From a virus (taxonomy: Duplodnaviria; Heunggongvirae; Uroviricota; Caudoviricetes): a stretch of DNA of 7,881 bases. Location of the stretch: the IMG/VR virus record IMGVR_UViG_3300029498_000057, one strand, 5' to 3'. Under the pieces are notes generated by a model that saw nothing but the letters and a program-made list of their open reading frames with translations, searched no databases and was not told the DNA's origin. The position numbers and the translations under genes are program-made. Of the stretch, positions 1-7,881 are shown in pieces. The number at the start of each line of letters is the position of its first letter. The first letter of the stretch is position 1.

Positions 1-67
1 CCCGTTTTCCTGTCATCAGGTCATGCAGTGCCGCACGGGCAGCGGCAAGTTCTTCCTGTCGCGTCAT
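1..67 (-). CDS. W: Head-tail joining protein W (gpW), N-terminal 22 codons only; gene continues beyond the window start
   Basis: Reverse complement of 1..67 translates to [22 protein letters not shown], which I recognise as the start of phage lambda gpW. Its ATG (67..65) overlaps the TGA stop of the terminase large subunit gene (66..64) in an ATGA arrangement. Absent from the ORF track because it is cut by the window edge. Confidence 0.8.
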   Translation of the reverse strand, partial: MTRQEELAAARAALHDLMTGKR

Positions 68-1989
68 TCATCCTCTCCGGATAAGGCACGGGCGTAATCT
101 GCCAGTGTTTTCTTGTTGGTTGCTGCACCATCCTCTTCCTGCAGGCTCGCCAGCAGCGCACTGAGATCCAGCTGCCAGCGGGAAATACTGATGCGCAGCG
201 CCGCCAGCGCATAAACGAAGCAGTCGAGTGCCTCATTGCGTCGCTTTTTGCTGTCCCACAGTATTTTTTTCCTGCCATCCACCCATTTTTCGACCTGCTC
301 TTCAGCAGTCAGCTGCTGCGCTTCGGTCAGATCAAAAATATCCGGGTTATTCGGGAAGTGAACGGCACCGGGAAGCGGTTCATCCCCTTCCGGCGTCAGT
401 GTGAAGCGGTTATAAATCTGCTCTTTCGCGGTATCCGTACCGATTTCGGTAAGGTAAACCCCGTTTTTGTTTCGCTTACGTGGCATGCTGGCCACCGGCT
501 TTCCGTAGACGGATGCCCCTTTAATGGGGATCACCCGGAACAGCCCATGTTTTTTCGAGCGTTCATACACAATGGTCGGGTCAATCCCGCCAGTATCCCA
601 GCAGATACGGGATACCGACATCTCTGCACCATTCCGGCGGGTATAGGTTTTATTGATGGCCTCATCCACACGCAGCAGCGTCTGTTCATCGTCGTGGCGG
701 CCCATAATAATCTGCCGGTCAATCAGCCAGCTTTCCTCACCCGGCCCCCATCCCCATACGCGCATTTCGTAGCGATCCAGCTGGGAGTCGATACCGGCGG
801 TCAGGTAAGCCACACGGTCAGGAACGGACGCTGAATAATGCTCTTTCCGCTCTGCCATCACTTCAGCATCCGGACGTTCGCCGATTTTCGCTTCCCATGT
901 CTCACCGAGCGTGGTGTTCACGAAGGTTTTACGTTTTCCCGTATCCCCTTTCGTCTTCATCCAGTCTTTGACAATCTGAACCCAGGTGGTGAACGGGCTG
1001 TACGCCGTCCAGATGTGAAAGGTCACACTGTCCGGCGGCTCAATCTCTTCACCGGATGACGAAAACCAGAGAATGCCATCACGGGTCCAGATCCCGGTCT
1101 TTTCGCAGATATAACGGGCATCAGTGAAGTCCAGCTCCTGCTGACGGATGACGCAGGCATTATGCTCGCAGAGATAAAACACGCTGGAGGGATCATCCGG
1201 CGTCCATTTGAGGCCAAACGGCGTCTCTTTATCGCCAAATTTAAGGTACTGCTCCTCCCCACAGTGCGGGCAGGCAACATGAAAACGCATAAAATGCGGG
1301 GATTCACTGGCTGCACGCTCAATCTGGCAGGTGCCTCTCACTTTGGGCGTGGAGCCACGGATGGACTTTGGCCAGACCGAGCCTTCAATACGCTTATCGC
1401 CCAGGAACGTTGGAGAGCCTTCCTGTTCAATATCCTCATCAAAGGCAGCAAGTTCATCATAACCCGCCACATCCACTGACTTTTCACGGTAGTTTTTTGC
1501 CGCTTTACCGCCCAGGCACCAGAAGCCACGCCCATTGGTGAAACGCTTCATGGTGAGCGTGTTATCCCGGTGCTTTTTGCCATACCACGGGGCCAGCGCC
1601 AGCAGCGACGGAATATCACGAATAGTCGGCTCAACGTGGGTTTTCATAAAGTTCTCGGCATCACCATCCGTCGGCAACCAGATAAGGGTGTTGCGCTGCT
1701 TATGCTCTATGAAGTAGGCATAAACACCCAGCAGCATTTTGGAATAACCGACACGGGCAGACTTCACCACATTCACCTCACGGATGTAGTCGCTGCCCAT
1801 CGCATTCATGATGGCCCGCTGAAAGGGCAGTGTTTCCCAGCGCCCTTCCTGGTATGCGGATTCTTTCGGGAGATAGTAACTGGCATCCGCCCATTCAACG
1901 GCAGTCTGTGGCTCCGGCCTGAACAGGGCTCGCAGCCCGGCGCGTACATCACGCCGCAGAATATCAATCTGACTGTTCGATATATTCAC
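64..1989 (-). CDS. A: Terminase large subunit (lambda gpA-like), 641 aa, apparently intact
   Basis: 641-aa ORF; translation (MNISNSQ...[18 protein letters not shown]...[37 protein letters not shown]) is near-identical along its length to lambda gpA as I recall it, including the Walker-A-like KSARVGYS segment. Same length as lambda gpA. Start overlaps the 3' end of the small-subunit gene by 26 nt, as in lambda. Gene order W-A-Nu1-cos matches lambda. Confidence 0.97.
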
Positions 1990-2509
1990 TCAGCAACCCC
2001 GGTATCAGTTCATCCAGCGCGGCTGCTTTGTTCATGGCTTTGATGATATCCCGTTTCAGGAAATCAACATGTCGGTTTTCCAGTTCCGGAAAACGCCGCT
2101 GTACCGAGAGAGGGATCCCGTCAAGAATACTGGCAATTTCACCTGCGATCCGTGACAGCACGAAAGTACAGAATGCGGTTTCCACCACCTCTGCGGAGTC
2201 TTTGGCATTCTTCAGCTCCTGTGCGTCGGCCTGCGCACGCGTAAGTCGATGGCGTTCGTACTCAATAGTCCCAGGCTGGAGATCTGCCTCACTGGCAGCC
2301 CTGTAATCCACAACCTCTTTACGGAGTTTTTCATTTTCGATATCAGCTTCCCTCTGCGCATACCACTGAATTGCCATGGCGGTATCAAATACAGATTCAA
2401 CGCCCTTACCACCTCCGGAGACGCAAGGGAGTCCCTGAGACTGCCAGCGTTCAATCGTTCGCGGATCCACGTTGAAAATTTCGGCAAGTTTCTTTTTATT
2501 AACCTTCAT
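1964..2509 (-). CDS. Nu1: Terminase small subunit (Nu1-like), 181 aa; C-terminal two thirds lambda-like, N-terminal DNA-binding region divergent (phage 21-like)
   Basis: 181-aa [32 protein letters not shown]...; from about [19 protein letters not shown] to the C-terminus it matches lambda Nu1 as recalled almost residue for residue, and the first ~70 aa are related but clearly different. Sits directly downstream of a cos site and overlaps the A gene. Confidence 0.95.
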
Positions 2510-2519
2510 GAAACAGTCT

Positions 2520-2685
2520 CACAATAAATACAGGGGCCGACATGAAAGTGCCCGAAAATGACTTTTTTAGGCGTTTTCATGTCGGACCTTTTACGGATTC
2601 GATATTAGAAAAAACAAATAGTTATGTTCGAGAAGTACCGACATGATTTTCCCCGGAAAATTTTCATAAATAGCGAAAACCCGCG
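2520..2685 (-). promoter_or_regulatory. cosB (terminase small-subunit binding region) with three R-type repeats (core CATGTCGG) and an A/T-rich I1-like segment
   Basis: Between cosN and the Nu1 start codon. On the minus strand the 8-mer CATGTCGG occurs direct at plus 2638..2645 (R3 position), inverted at 2578..2585 (R2 position) and direct at 2537..2544 (R1 position). This reproduces the direct/inverted/direct R3-R2-R1 architecture of lambda cosB, but the repeat is not lambda's CGTTTCC-type motif. The segment between R3 and R2 (minus strand CATAACTATTTGTTTTTTCT) resembles the lambda I1/IHF region CATAACTTAATGTTTTTATTT as I recall it. Confidence 0.75.
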
Positions 2686-2697
2686 AGGTCGCCGCCC
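2686..2697 (-). other. cosN: 12-nt cohesive-end region (minus strand GGGCGGCGACCT)
   Basis: Reverse complement of 2653..2697 is GGGCGGCGACCTCGCGGGTTTTCGCTATTTATGAAAATTTTCCGG, which is identical to the first 45 nt of the phage lambda genome (left cohesive end) as I recall it. Confidence 0.85.
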
Positions 2698-2753
2698 CGT
2701 AACAGCCCGGATCGCCGGAAAGGACCCGCAAAAATGATAATGGTTATCATTTT
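2698..2753 (-). other. cosQ-side region of cos (lambda right-end-like), including a 10-bp perfect inverted repeat
   Basis: Minus-strand sequence ATGATAACCATTATCATTTTTGCGGGTCCTTTCCGGCGATCCGGGCTGTTACG immediately precedes cosN and closely resembles the last ~55 nt of the lambda genome (...GATGATAATCATTATCACTTTACGGGTCCTTTCCGGTGATCCGACAGGTTACG, from memory). Plus 2731..2740 AAAATGATAA and 2744..2753 TTATCATTTT form a perfect inverted repeat with a 3-bp spacer. Confidence 0.6.
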
Positions 2754-2950
2754 CAATGTAGTCCGGTTTCTTCCACCATCGCACCGGACAGGCGACTATG
2801 AGGGGACAACGCCGCGCTCCGTTAACGCGGTAAACCCCGGTGTGTATCGTTTTTGATTATCCCCGCACACTCGCGCAGAGGAGTCTCCCGGTCGGGCTGC
2901 GGTCTCTGTTAATGCGGGGATACGGCGACAATACCGCGCATCAGCAAAAC

Positions 2951-3418
2951 TTATTTCAGGCACTGAGTGCGGATATATTCCTGCGCCACTTCCAGCTGCT
3001 TCTGCATCAGCATCAACCGCTCTCTGAGAGTGAAATAATCCCGTTCAGCGGTGTCTGCCAGTCGGGGGCCGGTTGCATTATCCACGCCGGAGGTGGTGGG
3101 GGCTTCACGCACGGTACCGGGGCAGGTGGCGTTGATCCGCAGGCGCTTACGACCAGCGGCAACGTCAGCGCGCAGAGTTTCATTTTCAGCTCTCGCATCG
3201 GCTAATTCCCTCGAGTATCTGGCATCAAGTGCAGCAACATCACGCTGGCGCTGCTGCATATCAGTAATGGTTGCATTTGCCTGCTCCAGCTCACTGACTT
3301 TTTTATCGCGCTGCTCTTTGTAGGTTATGGCGTTATCACGGTAATGATTCAGCCCCAGACTAAGCGCACCACAGGCCACCAGCAGGGCAATGATGACCAC
3401 GCACAGTACGCGGTTCAT
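2951..3418 (-). CDS. Rz: Spanin inner-membrane subunit (i-spanin, Rz-like), 155 aa
   Basis: 155-aa ORF with an N-terminal transmembrane segment (VLCVVIIALLVACGALSL) followed by a charged, coiled-coil-like region. Clear similarity to lambda Rz (shared NHYRDNAITYK, ITDMQ.RQRDVAALDA, GVDNA..PRLADTAERDYFTLRERL). Contains an embedded +1-frame Rz1 gene and lies last in the lysis cassette. Confidence 0.93.
   Translation of the reverse strand: MNRVLCVVIIALLVACGALSLGLNHYRDNAITYKEQRDKKVSELEQANATITDMQQRQRDVAALDARYSRELADARAENETLRADVAAGRKRLRINATCPGTVREAPTTSGVDNATGPRLADTAERDYFTLRERLMLMQKQLEVAQEYIRTQCLK
3013..3198 (-). CDS. Rz1: Spanin outer-membrane lipoprotein subunit (o-spanin, Rz1-like), 61 aa, entirely embedded in Rz in another frame
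   Basis: 61-aa ORF MRELKMKLCALTLPLVVSACGSTPPAPVPCVKPPPPPAWIMQPAPDWQTPLNGIISLSESG. Has a lipoprotein signal with lipobox ending at Cys20 and a proline-rich mature part; closely matches lambda Rz1 (CVKPPPPPAWIMQPPPDWQTPLNGIIS). The true start may be the internal Met6. Confidence 0.9.
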   Translation of the reverse strand: MRELKMKLCALTLPLVVSACGSTPPAPVPCVKPPPPPAWIMQPAPDWQTPLNGIISLSESG

Positions 3419-3419
3419 T

Positions 3420-3518
3420 TCACCACCAGCGTATCTGACCGATGAAATAACCGGAGGCCATAATCACAAACACCAGCCAGATAAGAATGAACTTCCAGGT
3501 GGATAATTTTTCAGCCAT
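3420..3518 (-). CDS. Hypothetical small hydrophobic protein (32 aa from ATG 3518; 45 aa if the in-frame GTG at 3557 is used), translationally coupled to Rz
   Basis: Not in the ORF track (below its size cutoff). Minus-strand reading gives MAEKLSTWKFILIWLVFVIMASGYFIGQIRWW then TGA (3422..3420), one nucleotide before the Rz ATG (3418..3416). An in-frame GTG at 3557..3555 is preceded by AAGGAG at a 5-nt spacing; the ATG at 3518 is preceded by GGGAG. One predicted transmembrane helix. No homolog recognised. Confidence 0.4.
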   Translation of the reverse strand: MAEKLSTWKFILIWLVFVIMASGYFIGQIRWW

Positions 3519-3593
3519 CACTCGAATCTCCCGAATCAGTTTGCTAAAATCAAACACACTTTCTCCTTTGACTTTTCCAGAGTCAGGAAACAC

Positions 3594-3636
3594 AAAACCC
3601 CGCTTGCAGCCAACAAACGGGGTTTTTACTTTTATT
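3594..3636. terminator. Rho-independent-terminator-like hairpin with T-runs on both sides (potentially bidirectional) between endolysin and spanin genes
   Basis: Plus strand AAAACCCCGCTTG-CAGCCAA-CAAACGGGGTTTTTACTTTTATT. On the minus strand (the gene strand) the stem is CCCCGTTTG/CAAGCGGGG, 9 bp including one G-U pair, with a 7-nt loop, followed by TTTTGTGTTT. On the plus strand the same hairpin is followed by TTTTTACTTTTATT. Confidence 0.5.
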
Positions 3637-3716
3637 CACTTAGTTTTTGTCAGTTCGCAGGATTTCGTGTTATCCGTCCGTGTAAGCAAACCGCATTTTT
3701 CAGCAAAATATTCTGC

Positions 3717-4250
3717 TTATCTGTCGATACCCCAGCACGCCAGCGCGCTCTCCTGGTCACGACGGGATACCTGACCGTAGCAGTTGTTTGAACGAATACG
3801 GCAGTCTCTGCCACCGTCCTTAATCCACCAGCGAATCGCCTCACACGCTCCCCTGCGATCACCTGCATTAATTCGTTTATAAAACGTCGACGGGAAACAC
3901 TTACCGGGACCAATGTTGTACGGACAGAATGACGCGATCCCCGCTTTCTGGGGTTCGCTCAATGGCACTTTGATGTTTTTCTCCACCCATGCCAGCGCCT
4001 TATCACGCTCAATGGCGTTAACCCGGTCGCATTTTTCCTTCGACAACTTCATGCCCGGAACGACAGGTTTGCCATCCACCAGGATGGCACCGCGGCAGAT
4101 GGTCCAGATACCCGCGCCATCACGGTATGCCGTGGTGTGGTTACCTTCCTTTTCATCCAGAAACTGGTCGAGAATGTCAGGCGCAGGCGCACCAGCGGCA
4201 ATCAGCGCCAGAACGGCAGCCGACAGGCCGTATTTGATTTTGGTGTTCAT
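3717..4250 (-). CDS. R: Endolysin, GH24 (T4-lysozyme-like) family with an N-terminal SAR/signal-anchor-like segment (R of 933W/Qin type), 177 aa
   Basis: 177-aa ORF MNTKIKYGLSAAVLALIAAGAPAP... followed by the lysozyme catalytic region EGNHTTAYRDGAGIWTICRGA (Glu-8aa-Asp-5aa-Thr pattern). The N-terminal Gly/Ala-rich weakly hydrophobic stretch is typical of SAR endolysins. Strong resemblance to the prophage endolysins I recall from Qin (RrrQ) and Stx2 phages. Lies between the holin and Rz. Confidence 0.93.
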   Translation of the reverse strand: MNTKIKYGLSAAVLALIAAGAPAPDILDQFLDEKEGNHTTAYRDGAGIWTICRGAILVDGKPVVPGMKLSKEKCDRVNAIERDKALAWVEKNIKVPLSEPQKAGIASFCPYNIGPGKCFPSTFYKRINAGDRRGACEAIRWWIKDGGRDCRIRSNNCYGQVSRRDQESALACWGIDR

Positions 4251-4313
4251 GGATATTTATCAGGATTTATCGGTTTCTGCCCACGGACAGGTTTATCTGT
4301 TCCGGTCAGTGAC

Positions 4314-4664
4314 TTAAGGTTGTGATTCCGGAGGAGTCTTCAGAGAACCAGTAATTCTTCCCGGTAGCTTTCCTTTGTAGGTTATCCATACATTCTGCGC
4401 CTCTAAAATTACGGGGCGCTTTTCCGGCGACTGCTCATCCCCTTCACATAACCCGGCAGCAACATCCAGGAAGACCTGTCTGATGCTCATTCTGGCTGCT
4501 GCCTCATAAAACTCCAGCGCGGCACCTTCAACACGGTCCAGCGAGATGTCCAGGTCAAAAATTTCACCGTCAAAGCGTTTTTTGTCCCGTAACGCTAAAG
4601 TTACCGTAACTTTATTCTCAAAATTGCGGATCCCTTTCACAATCAGTTCATAGTTTTGAGTCAT
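4314..4664 (-). CDS. ydfR: YdfR-like protein of unknown function (DUF1327-type, family name from memory), 116 aa, inserted between holin and endolysin
   Basis: 116-aa ORF MTQNYELIVKGIRNFENKVTVTLALRDKKRFDGEIFDLDISLDRVEGAALEFYEAAARMSIRQVFLDVA... Start is 4 nt after the holin stop and preceded by GGGGAGAG. The N-terminal ~75 aa resemble E. coli K-12 Qin prophage YdfR as I recall it, which sits in the same position. No transmembrane segment and no catalytic motif recognised. Confidence 0.85.
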   Translation of the reverse strand: MTQNYELIVKGIRNFENKVTVTLALRDKKRFDGEIFDLDISLDRVEGAALEFYEAAARMSIRQVFLDVAAGLCEGDEQSPEKRPVILEAQNVWITYKGKLPGRITGSLKTPPESQP

Positions 4665-4668
4665 TGAA

Positions 4669-4884
4669 TTACTCTCCCCGTGCCGCCTTACGACGGTCCT
4701 CTCTGATTTTGAAATACAGGTTAGTCAGATATGTCAGCAGCCCAAACAGCAGACTCCCCAGCACGCCTATTGCCGCCCACTGAGACGGGGAAACCCTGTC
4801 CAGCAACTGCAGGAACCAGTAGCCCGTTCCCACCGCTGACGTGGTGTATGACACACCTGTTGTGATTTTTTCCATCTGGTCCAT
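4669..4884 (-). CDS. S: Class II holin / pinholin of S21 (phage 21 / Stx-phage S) type, 71 aa, with dual-start motif
   Basis: [71 protein letters not shown]: two transmembrane segments and a charged C-terminus, near-identical to S21/933W S as recalled. Met1 and Met4 give the dual-start arrangement; GGGAGA lies ~8 nt upstream of Met1. The ORF track's 108-aa version (4669..4995) is an upstream over-extension that runs into the IS66 terminal repeat. Confidence 0.9.
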
Positions 4885-4903
4885 ACCCCGTCTCCCGTTA
4901 TCC

Positions 4904-4929
4904 GTAACCGGCTCATTTAAACCGTCTGG
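4904..4929 (+). repeat. IS66-family left terminal inverted repeat (IRL), approximate extent
   Basis: GTAACCGGCTCATTTAAACCGTCTGG aligns in inverted orientation with the right end GTAAGCGACTCGTCAGAACCGTATTG (shared GTAA.CG.CTC...AACCGT.T). Boundary placed by the family's characteristic GTAA terminus; exact inner extent uncertain. Confidence 0.6.
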
Positions 4930-4956
4930 TCTGTTTCCTCCGGCTCTACAAAAATA

Positions 4957-5634
4957 ATGTCCATCATTTTTAATGGACACTATCGTATGAAACACCGGAC
5001 CTGGATCACTGAAGCTTTACGTCTTCACTTTGAAGAACATTTACCCCGGGTTGTGGCCGGGCGTCGCCTGGGTGTACCAAAATCAACAGTTTGTAGTATG
5101 TTCGTGCGCTTTCGGAGAGCTGGCCTTTCGTGGCCTTTGCCCGCAGGCATGTCGGAGCAGGAACTTGATGCCTGCCTTTACGGACAATTTTCCACGGTAC
5201 CAGTCGTACGTCCTGAAAGCACCGTTATATCCGAAGCCCCCGTGGTAAAAAAACGTCCCCGGCGGCCCAACTTCCCTTATGAGTTTAAAATCGCCTTAGT
5301 GGAGCAGTCACTGCAGCCCGGAGCCTGTGTGGCGCAGATCGCCCGGGAAAACGGAATCAACGATAACCTGCTCTTCAACTGGCGCCATCAATACCGGAAA
5401 GGTGGCCTGCTGCCTTCCGGAAAAAATATGCCGGCACTGCTTCCCGTGACGTTAACGCCGGAGCCGGATAATAAAATCCCGGCCCCCGCACAGGAACCAG
5501 AGCAGATAAATACACCGTCCGACAGTCTGTGTTGTGAGCTGGTTCTGCCGGCCGGAACTCTCAGGCTTAAAGGTAAACTGACGCCGGCGTTATTACAGAC
5601 ACTTATCCGCGAAATAAAAGGGAGCAGCCACTGA
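4957..5634 (+). CDS. tnpA: IS66-family accessory protein TnpA (Orf1) with an N-terminal helix-turn-helix-like extension, 225 aa
   Basis: The C-terminal half contains the IS66 Orf1 signature ([49 protein letters not shown]). The N-terminal ~100 aa carry an additional HTH-like segment ([21 protein letters not shown]). The start codon is uncertain: ATG 4957, or an in-frame ATG 30 nt downstream. Stop overlaps the tnpB start. Confidence 0.8.
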
Positions 5635-5981
5635 TGATATCTCTCCCTGCAGGTTCGCGTATCTGGCTGGTTGCAGGTATCACCGATATGCGAAATGGCT
5701 TTAACGGCCTGGCATCAAAAGTTCAGAACGTCCTGAAGGATGACCCGTTCTCCGGACACCTGTTCATCTTCCGCGGACGCCGGGGTGACCAGATAAAAGT
5801 GTTGTGGGCTGACAGTGACGGACTGTGCCTCTTCACCAAACGCCTGGAGCGGGGCCGCTTCGTCTGGCCAGTCACCCGTGACGGCAAGGTGCACCTTACT
5901 CCGGCTCAGTTATCCATGCTTCTTGAAGGTATCAACTGGAAGCACCCGAAACGAACGGAACGCGCTGGAATCCGCATATAA
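5634..5981 (+). CDS. tnpB: IS66-family Orf2 (TnpB accessory protein; not the IS200/IS605 TnpB nuclease), 115 aa
   Basis: [79 protein letters not shown]... is the highly conserved IS66 Orf2 sequence pattern. Its ATG overlaps the upstream stop (TGATG), a typical translational coupling in this family. Confidence 0.93.
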   Translation: MISLPAGSRIWLVAGITDMRNGFNGLASKVQNVLKDDPFSGHLFIFRGRRGDQIKVLWADSDGLCLFTKRLERGRFVWPVTRDGKVHLTPAQLSMLLEGINWKHPKRTERAGIRI

Positions 5982-6000
5982 CCCGTTGTAAAGTGAGGAT

Positions 6001-7572
6001 ATGGACACCTCACTTGCTCATGAGAACGCCCGCCTGCGGGCACTGTTGCAGACGCAACAGGACACCATCCGCCAGATGGCTGAATACAACCGCCTGCTCT
6101 CACAGCGGGTGGCGGCTTATGCTTCCGAAATCAACCGGCTGAAGGCGCTGGTTGCGAAACTGCAACGTATGCAGTTCGGTAAAAGCTCAGAAAAACTTCG
6201 TGCAAAAACCGAACGGCAGATACAGGAAGCACAGGAGCGAATCAGCGCACTTCAGGAAGAAATGGCGGAAACGCTGGGTGAGCAATATGACCCGGTACTG
6301 CCATCCGCCCTGCGCCAGTCTTCAGCCCGTAAACCGTTACCGGCCTCACTTCCCCGTGAAACCCGGGTTATCCGGCCGGAAGAGGAATGCTGTCCTGCCT
6401 GTGGTGGTGAACTCAGTTCTCTGGGATGTGATGTGTCAGAGCAACTGGAGCTTATCAGCAGCGCCTTTAAGGTTATCGAAACACAACGTCCGAAACAGGC
6501 CTGTTGCCGGTGCGACCATATCGTGCAGGCACCAGTACCTTCAAAACCCATTGCACGCAGTTATGCCGGAGCGGGGCTTCTGGCCCATGTTGTCACCGGG
6601 AAATATGCAGACCATCTGCCGTTATACCGCCAGTCAGAAATATACCGTCGTCAGGGAGTGGAGCTGAGCCGTGCCACACTGGGGCGCTGGACAGGTGCTG
6701 TTGCTGAACTGCTGGAGCCGCTGTATGACGTCCTGCGCCAGTATGTGCTGATGCCCGGTAAAGTCCATGCTGATGATATCCCCGTCCCGGTCCAGGAGCC
6801 GGGCAGCGGTAAAACCCGGACAGCCCGGCTGTGGGTCTACGTCCGTGATGACCGTAACGCCGGTTCACAGATGCCCCCGGCGGTCTGGTTCGCGTACAGT
6901 CCGGACCGGAAAGGTATCCATCCACAAAATCACCTGGCCGGTTACAGCGGTGTGCTTCAGGCCGATGCTTACGGTGGTTACCGGGCGTTATACGAATCCG
7001 GCAGAATAACGGAAGCCGCGTGTATGGCTCATGCCCGGAGAAAAATCCACGATGTGCATGCAAGAGCGCCCACCTACATCACCACGGAAGCCCTGCAGCG
7101 TATCGGTGAACTGTATGCCATCGAGGCAGAGGTCCGGGGCTGTTCAGCAGAACAGCGTCTGGCGGCAAGAAAAGCCAGAGCCGCGCCACTGATGCAGTCA
7201 CTGTATGACTGGATACAGCAACAGATGAAAACACTGTCGCGTCACTCAGATACGGCAAAAGCGTTCGCATACCTGCTGAAACAGTGGGATGCACTGAACG
7301 TGTACTGCAGTAATGGCTGGGTGGAAATCGACAACAACATCGCAGAGAACGCCTTACGGGGAGTGGCCGTAGGCCGGAAAAACTGGATGTTCGCGGGTTC
7401 CGACAGCGGTGGTGAACATGCGGCGGTGTTGTACTCGCTGATCGGCACATGCCGTCTGAACAATGTGGAGCCAGAAAAGTGGCTGCGTTACGTCATTGAA
7501 CATATCCAGGACTGGCCGGCAAACCGGGTACGCGATCTGTTGCCCTGGAAAGTTGATCTGAGCTCTCAGTAA
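6001..7572 (+). CDS. tnpC: IS66-family transposase TnpC (Orf3), 523 aa
   Basis: 523-aa ORF preceded by GTGAGGA. Has an N-terminal coiled-coil/leucine-zipper-like region, a Cys-rich zinc-finger-like motif (CPACGGEL...CRCDH) and a large catalytic core, typical of IS66 transposases. Ends ~30 bp before the right terminal repeat. Confidence 0.93.
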
Positions 7573-7576
7573 ATAT

Positions 7577-7602
7577 CAATACGGTTCTGACGAGTCGCTT
7601 AC
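7577..7602 (-). repeat. IS66-family right terminal inverted repeat (IRR), approximate extent
   Basis: Reverse complement of 7577..7602 is GTAAGCGACTCGTCAGAACCGTATTG, beginning with the canonical IS66-family terminal GTAAGCG and matching the left end at about 18 of 26 positions. Confidence 0.6.
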
Positions 7603-7881
7603 AAGAGGAACGAGAACCATTCATAGAGCCTAACACACTAAATGCCGCATTGAATCCCACGACTCGGCACGATCAACGTAAGATAATCGGAGCTTGCTGC
7701 ATGGTGACAAATGGAAAATGTGAAGGTAAAGAAAACGACATTACTAACTGACGTTTGTATCTAACACTGGGGACAGGTCACCTTGAATCGATGGAAGTCT
7801 CATTATGGATTTGCCCCTATATTTCCAGACATCTGTTATCACTTAACCCATTACAAGCCCGCTGCCGCAGATATTCCCGTG

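Follow-up and report, generated by a model that had tools for sequence, protein, structure and literature searches.

An ISCro1 copy with unlike flanks beside the lysis genes of a lambda-like prophage

RESULTS

Prophage DNA and genomic-island DNA on the two sides of ISCro1

The DNA analyzed, a viral sequence of 7,881 nt referred to here as the window, contains a complete ISCro1 element whose ends were placed to the base and whose two flanks are unrelated. The left flank is the late module of a lambda-like prophage. The right flank is a stretch of genomic-island DNA plus the end of an IS2, and the segment from nanS-p to Q is absent; ISCro1 thus appears to join phage DNA to non-phage DNA in the window. 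At the same base pair of other prophages, the same element is found with a perfect 8-bp duplication and with the phage late region beyond it. We lean towards a real rearrangement, which would have left the window copy with one flank from each of two sites. The features of the window are listed in Table 1.

TABLE 1. Features of the window
Feature	Position	Strand	Evidence or remark
Terminase large subunit, gpA-like, 641 aa, intact	64-1989	-	PF05876, PF20454
Terminase small subunit Nu1, 181 aa	1964-2509	-	PF07471
Rz spanin, 155 aa	2951-3418	-	PF03245
Rz1, embedded in Rz	3013-3198		ORF list
Phage lysozyme (endolysin), 177 aa	3717-4250	-	PF00959
YdfR/DUF1327 protein, 116 aa, between holin and endolysin	4314-4664	-	PF07041
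Class II holin (phage 21 S-type), 71 aa	4669-4884	-	PF04971
Left flanking 8-mer, CGTTATCC	4896-4903		Half of the duplication that is intact in 01_3327
Complete ISCro1 (IS66 family), 2699 bp	4904-7602	+	100% identity to annotated copies
Left terminal inverted repeat (GTAACCGGCTCATTTAAACCGT)	4904-4925	+	Inverted-repeat search
tnpA, 225 aa	4957-5634	+	PF01527
tnpB, 115 aa	5634-5981	+	PF05717 (TnpB_IS66)
tnpC, DDE transposase, 523 aa	6001-7572	+	PF03050, PF13817, PF13007, PF13005
Right terminal inverted repeat (ends ...GAGTCGCTTAC)	7581-7602	+	Inverted-repeat search; junction with the duplicated 8-mer in 01_3327
Noncoding fragment of Ag43-type genomic island, 204 bp, starting with AAGAGGAA	7603-7806		100% identical to AR435 and CUWW11
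IS2 terminal 75 bp (TGGATTTGCCCC...), running off the window	7807-7881	-	Same sequence as the annotated IS2 end of CUWW11

Identity and ends of the element

Positions 4896 to 7602 were 100% identical to copies annotated as "IS66-like element ISCro1 family" in many complete Escherichia coli genomes. The three genes tnpA, tnpB, and tnpC characteristic of the IS66 family were all intact, with Pfam matches far above the cut-offs, and tnpA of the reference ISCro1 copy in UTME-2 is likewise 678 nt long and annotated as an IS66-like TnpA. The terminal inverted repeats are of the kind expected for this family (imperfect, of about 20 to 30 bp and beginning with GTAA): they are 22 nt long, are 73% complementary, and start with GTAA, with GTAACCG... 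pairing with ...CGCTTAC. All eight full-length copies measured, which lie in different contexts, had the same length of 2699 bp. Judging by sequence, the element is ISCro1 itself and not a new IS. The earlier note on this DNA, made from the letters alone, had recognized an IS66-family element, an assignment that the full identity to ISCro1 and the IS66 Pfam domains bear out. It had given the element the span 4896-7610, which takes in the two flanking 8-mers and has to be shortened accordingly to 4904-7602. Its placement 20 bp upstream of the holin gene was sound, with the holin ATG starting at position 4884 and 19 nt separating it from the IS.

Three independent comparisons (with an IS-free relative, with island DNA, and with copies that have duplications) fixed the ends to the base. 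On the left, the match of the IS-free relative to the window stopped exactly at 4903, and on the right, the island DNA of other strains matched from exactly 7603. Furthermore, perfect 8-bp duplications bordered these same ends in five of the eight sampled ISCro1 copies, the duplicated 8-mers being GATCAAAC, CGTTATCC, AACAGAAC, AGATGACC, and GAAGGCAC. Copies lacking a duplication were also present in finished long-read genomes (L003 and L027), where they are genuine and not rare.

With the ends so placed, the 8-mers flanking the window copy are CGTTATCC on the left and AAGAGGAA (7603-7610) on the right, which agree at none of their positions. No second CGTTATCC was found when the whole window was searched. 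This copy of ISCro1 has therefore no target-site duplication, as had been proposed before the ends were known. Given that five of eight other ISCro1 copies do have one, the missing duplication is a matter of the history of this copy and not of the identity of the element.

The prophage late module

The genes to the left of the element, all on the minus strand, make up a lambda-like late module according to their Pfam matches and the ORF list. The lysis cassette is of the phage 21 type, with a class II dual-start holin (PF04971) followed by the endolysin (PF00959) and Rz/Rz1 (PF03245). The holin begins with MDQMEK, in which Met1 and Met4 form the dual-start motif, and its Shine-Dalgarno-like GGGAGA is still present beside the IS. 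The endolysin has a hydrophobic N terminus (GLSAAVLALIAAGA), as judged by eye, at the place where a signal-anchor-release (SAR) domain would be expected in a cassette of this type. The terminase large subunit is identical to the protein of the IS-free relative L015, and the window carries the K103 variant of Nu1, a rare one. Neither the Q antiterminator nor pR'/qut, both of which a functional lambdoid late operon would have upstream of the lysis genes, was found within the window; to the right of the holin gene it holds only ISCro1, the 204 bp of island DNA, and the IS2 end. In other genomes (L033, L023, and L007), other IS elements are inserted in the same lysis cassette.

The same site in related prophages

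The IS-free prophage L015 (CP170329.1/NZ_CP170329.1), the closest IS-free relative, was 99.76% identical to positions 1 to 4903 of the window, with 12 substitutions and no gaps. Aligning the two placed the left junction at 4903, from which point L015 continues into phage DNA. At the site it reads CCCGTTATCC followed directly by GGAAGCTGAC (in the form of the junction 8-mers, CGTTATCC followed by GGAAGCTG). To the right, in the orientation of the window, come a strong hairpin (12-bp stem) resembling a terminator, nanS-p (for a 617-aa esterase), an iraM/pmrD-like gene, a DNA methylase gene, and Q, in that order. Neither the hairpin nor any of these four genes was found within the window.

The canonical allele was searched for with a chimeric query composed of the right end of ISCro1, CGTTATCC, and the IS-free phage sequence, which aligned over its full length, at 99%, with two complete genomes, namely, those of E. 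coli 01_3327 and 03_3013 (NZ_CP074961.1 and NZ_CP074958.1). Both strains share with the window the position of ISCro1 to the base pair, its orientation, and the left 8-mer CGTTATCC. Unlike the window, they have the perfect CGTTATCC duplication on the right, after which the prophage goes on with nanS-p and Q. Strain 01_3327 reads ...CTCC-CGTTATCC-GTAACCGG...GTCGCTTAC-CGTTATCC-GGAAGCTG..., and then nanS-p and Q. An 8-bp repeat with late-regulatory phage DNA immediately to its right, the arrangement that the earlier note had named as contrary to its view, is thus realized in 01_3327 and 03_3013, whereas the window contains neither. The canonical right junction was absent from IMG/VR.

A further group of about 30 complete genomes, of the UTME-2 type, resembles the window in having the same left junction, no duplication, and a replaced right flank. 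Here, through an ISCro1-associated rearrangement, the right flank is made up of tccP2 and a tail-fibre fragment, together with 439 bp remaining from a second ISCro1 copy and a truncated nanS-p. Unlike in the window, Q still follows about 3.4 kb further on, the late region being rearranged and not removed. Finished genomes of this type show that ISCro1 at the holin site takes part in secondary rearrangements that erase the duplication.

Outside the complete genomes, the left-junction pattern was found in one IMG/VR contig (L041), which has a STEC-like haplotype and not that of the window, and was not matched in the GTDB representatives or the JGI metagenomes. When YdfR, TerL, and Rz were looked up as exact proteins, the only hits were IS-free prophages, these proteins being too common.

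The site taken by ISCro1 has the terminator hairpin after nanS-p 20 nt upstream of it and the holin ATG 19 nt downstream. Two prophage haplotypes carry the element at this very base pair and in the same orientation. The holin flank of 01_3327 and 03_3013 belongs to the other haplotype and is about 92% identical to the window over the last 240 bp; that is, about 8% of the positions differ between the window and the 01_3327/UTME-2 lineage. The nearest differences are at 4881, 4858, and 4828, the closest one being 22 nt from the junction. It is conceivable, though we rather doubt it, that ISCro1 has a genuine insertion hot spot here, through target recognition or through repeated selection for silencing of prophage lysis. 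IS66-family transposases are not known to be site specific. Alternatively, gene conversion may have extended across the holin region as far as the IS border.

The right flank

The 204-bp fragment corresponds to an intergenic stretch of AR435 (L001, 6001-6204) and of CUWW11, with 100% identity in both. The island to which it belongs in these two strains is of the Ag43/Cah type and carries GTPase, DUF2971, GNAT, and hypothetical genes. In AR435, it lies about 915 kb away from the prophage with the homologous holin. An independent IS2 insertion, bordered by a normal 5-bp duplication, is found in the island of CUWW11, 28 bp further along.

The right junction, from ISCro1 into AAGAGGAA, gave no match in 5,426 complete E. 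coli genomes or in the phage and plasmid collections, and none in IMG/VR, the GTDB representative genomes, or the JGI metagenomes. Look-ups of two junction-spanning ORFs gave no record of either. As the right junction was found nowhere else, no independent sequence confirms both flanks on one IS copy. A plasmid-borne module made up of ISCro1, the 204 bp, and IS2 was also considered and was rejected, as the plasmid collection contained no such junction.

DISCUSSION

From the flanks of the window copy we infer the following order of events. An active-looking ISCro1 would first have entered a lambda-like prophage between the terminator after nanS-p and the holin ribosome-binding site, at a distance of 19 nt from the holin start codon, duplicating CGTTATCC. 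The DNA to the right of this copy would later have been exchanged. This might have occurred by RecA-type homologous recombination with a putative second ISCro1 residing in the Ag43-type island, with AAGAGGAA as its own duplication, or else the holin-site copy might have transposed intramolecularly into the island. How the two sites are oriented to each other would decide whether an inversion, a deletion, or a translocation resulted. In any case, the surviving copy would be a hybrid, with its left flank from the holin site and its right flank from the island site, and this would explain the lack of a duplication. Deletion, inversion, and two-copy recombination cannot be separated from the window, which does not include the reciprocal junction. 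The secondary event suggested in the earlier note fits the comparisons, given the canonical allele in other strains and the island DNA on the right, but its mechanism cannot be told apart, and the two flanks may also belong to two canonical copies.

After such an exchange, the holin, YdfR, endolysin, Rz/Rz1, Nu1, and terminase genes would no longer lie downstream of nanS-p, Q, and pR'. These lysis and packaging genes had been described in the earlier note as possibly cut off, and the window indeed has no Q, pR', or late-region DNA to their right, so that within it they are unlinked from the late promoter; that the prophage is defective, as was also thought likely there, we can only infer. Intact as they are in sequence, the genes probably lack a promoter and are silent, making this stretch probably a cryptic prophage remnant. 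No sigma-70-like promoter leading from the left end of the IS towards the holin gene was detected, and the idea of an outward promoter in that end driving the holin was rejected for that reason.

The main competitor of a real rearrangement is an error of assembly, in which at least two canonical ISCro1 insertions present in the strain or the community, one at the holin site with CGTTATCC and one in the island with AAGAGGAA, would have been wrongly joined by a short-read assembler through the identical 2.7-kb repeat, the left flank of the one to the right flank of the other. We regard this as a serious contender, if somewhat improbable. Joining two canonical copies would yield exactly the mismatched 8-mers observed, and a canonical insertion at the holin site does exist in nature, in 01_3327 and 03_3013. 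Moreover, only four or five contigs, none longer than 10 kb, carry precisely this Nu1 variant (JGI/IMG, ENA, and Logan); no NCBI isolate has it. Two of these contigs (L042 and L043), from the human-gut metagenome run ERR1190697, are 100% identical to the window and break off within ISCro1, after 126 nt and 29 nt, a pattern typical of a repeat that branches at k=127 and k=31. Exact matches to the window came solely from metagenome contigs that are short and break off at the edge of ISCro1. Similarly, the window itself runs out 75 nt into IS2, as contigs do at repeats. These two breaks, together with the end of the window in IS2, show that the left junction is real, confirmed at the read level by two independent assemblies, and that ISCro1 has more than one context in sample ERR1190697; they also make the window probably a short-read contig. 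On the other hand, assemblers normally break at a multi-copy IS, as happened here at IS2, and the crossing of ISCro1 suggests a single dominant path in that assembly. That duplication-less copies are genuine in finished long-read genomes (L003 and L027) also argues against an artifact. Were the contig nevertheless a chimera, which we rate as the lesser possibility, the prophage late region would be intact save for a simple IS insertion.

It is very improbable that ISCro1 moved together with adjacent island DNA by means of a surrogate right end, in which case the true boundary and the second CGTTATCC would lie beyond the window. Mobilization of a flank in this manner is known in other IS families, and the window is too short to see past IS2. 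However, no CGTTATCC occurs to the right within it, the right inverted repeat of ISCro1 is intact and is the end used in the five canonical copies, and IS2 interrupts the supposed unit after only 204 bp. Besides, we know of no such case documented for the IS66 family. For a simple insertion with an 8-bp duplication that escaped notice through misplaced IS ends, there was no supporting point, and this reading is effectively ruled out, since the IS-free relative, the island match, and the five duplicated copies fix the ends to the base, the flanks match at no position, and the DNA on the right is not of phage origin.

Should the join be real, the window represents one more case of an IS cutting the lysis and packaging genes of a prophage off their late promoter, a routine step in the decay and domestication of prophages in E. 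coli. The observation would then be of use mainly in annotation, where it speaks against scoring the contig as an inducible phage. A chimera, in turn, would illustrate how the passage of a contig through a multi-copy IS can look like a rearrangement. Either outcome leaves the knowledge of IS66 elements and lambdoid phages unchanged, a mildly interesting thread being the occupation of the same base pair in two prophage haplotypes.

The phenomenon itself is already known and is ordinary biology. In enterohaemorrhagic E. coli, IS elements mediate deletions, inversions, and prophage decay, IS629 being one example; an IS with mismatched flanks is a textbook sign that IS-mediated recombination or an intramolecular transposition has taken place, and the late and lysis modules of prophages are frequent casualties of IS rearrangement. 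The IS629 cases differ from the window in the IS family involved. For the IS66 family, the chemistry of transposition is poorly characterized, and "adjacent deletion" would therefore be ascribed to ISCro1 by analogy only. ISCro1 was first named in Citrobacter rodentium ICC168, which has 24 copies (PMC3072379), and in both E. coli and C. rodentium IS elements are biased towards mobile elements, being concentrated in prophages and islands (PMC3072379). The window copy has the same 2699 bp, genes, GTAA inverted repeats, and ends as ISCro1 in complete E. coli genomes, and it differs from five of the eight sampled copies in that it is not bordered by an 8-bp duplication.

Target site of ISCro1

The same base pair upstream of the holin gene is occupied by ISCro1, in the same orientation, in two prophage haplotypes, that of the window and that of the 01_3327/UTME-2 lineage, as seen when the corresponding stretches of the window, L025 and the IS-free prophage relative L015 were compared. 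The left flanks of the two ISCro1-bearing haplotypes are about 92% identical across the last 240 bp, with differences at 4828, 4858 and 4881. The shared position points either to an insertion hot spot or to gene conversion extending up to the IS border.

In L015, at the place that corresponds in the IS-free state to just right of position 4903 in the window, nanS-p is followed by a strong hairpin of terminator type, with a 12-bp stem and a T-run, whose end lies 20 nt short of the ISCro1 target 8-mer. The landing site falls between this hairpin and the ribosome-binding site of the holin gene.

Features of the window and of related loci
Feature	Sequence	Coordinates
Lysozyme	window	3717-4250
Holin	window	4669-4884
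IS2 terminus (TGGATTTGCCCC...)	window	7807-7881
Left flank up to the ISCro1 junction	window	4882-4903
Corresponding stretch	L025	3385-3406
Corresponding stretch	L015	7087-7108
Terminator-like hairpin	L015	7039-7067
tccP2/tail-fibre locus	L003 (UTME-2)	14584-16506
Full-length ISCro1	L027 (VTB96929v)	306-3004
ISEc8-like element	L033	6612-8947
IS21-family element	L023	3670-5972
IS3-family element	L007	11920-13148

Other IS copies and the ends of the window

In Escherichia coli VTB96929v, a finished genome, another full-length ISCro1 has no target-site duplication, its flanks reading CCTTTATC and GAATAGGA; therefore, hybrid-flank copies are not unusual. In E. coli UTME-2, a full ISCro1 and a 439-bp remnant of an ISCro1 left end bracket the effector gene tccP2 plus a C-terminal tail-fibre fragment. 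This block, which lies between the holin gene and Q and stands there in place of most of nanS-p, is a composite-like, IS-bounded module within the prophage late region.

To the right, 204 bp separate ISCro1 from an IS2 terminus, of which the window includes 75 nt before it stops. In strain CUWW11, the same island carries its own, independent IS2 28 bp further on, flanked by a 5-bp duplication, TTCTC. Within positions 1 to 5029, the window is 100% identical to two human-gut metagenome contigs from run ERR1190697, which end 126 nt (L042) and 29 nt (L043) into ISCro1. Since these matches break inside the element, and the Nu1 variant K103 of the window is found on only a few contigs, none longer than 10 kb, the window itself is probably a short-read metagenome contig.

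The lysis cassette

It appears that IS elements often insert into prophage lysis modules, or that such insertions are often retained. Other E. coli genomes carry different IS elements inside or beside the same cassette: an ISEc8-like IS66 element in ydfR, an IS21-family element, and an IS3-family element near bor. In the window, a YdfR/DUF1327 gene lies between the holin gene and that of the lysozyme, whose hydrophobic N terminus resembles a SAR domain. The holin begins MDQMEK, with paired methionines three codons apart, the same two-methionine start as in the dual-start pinholin of phage 21.
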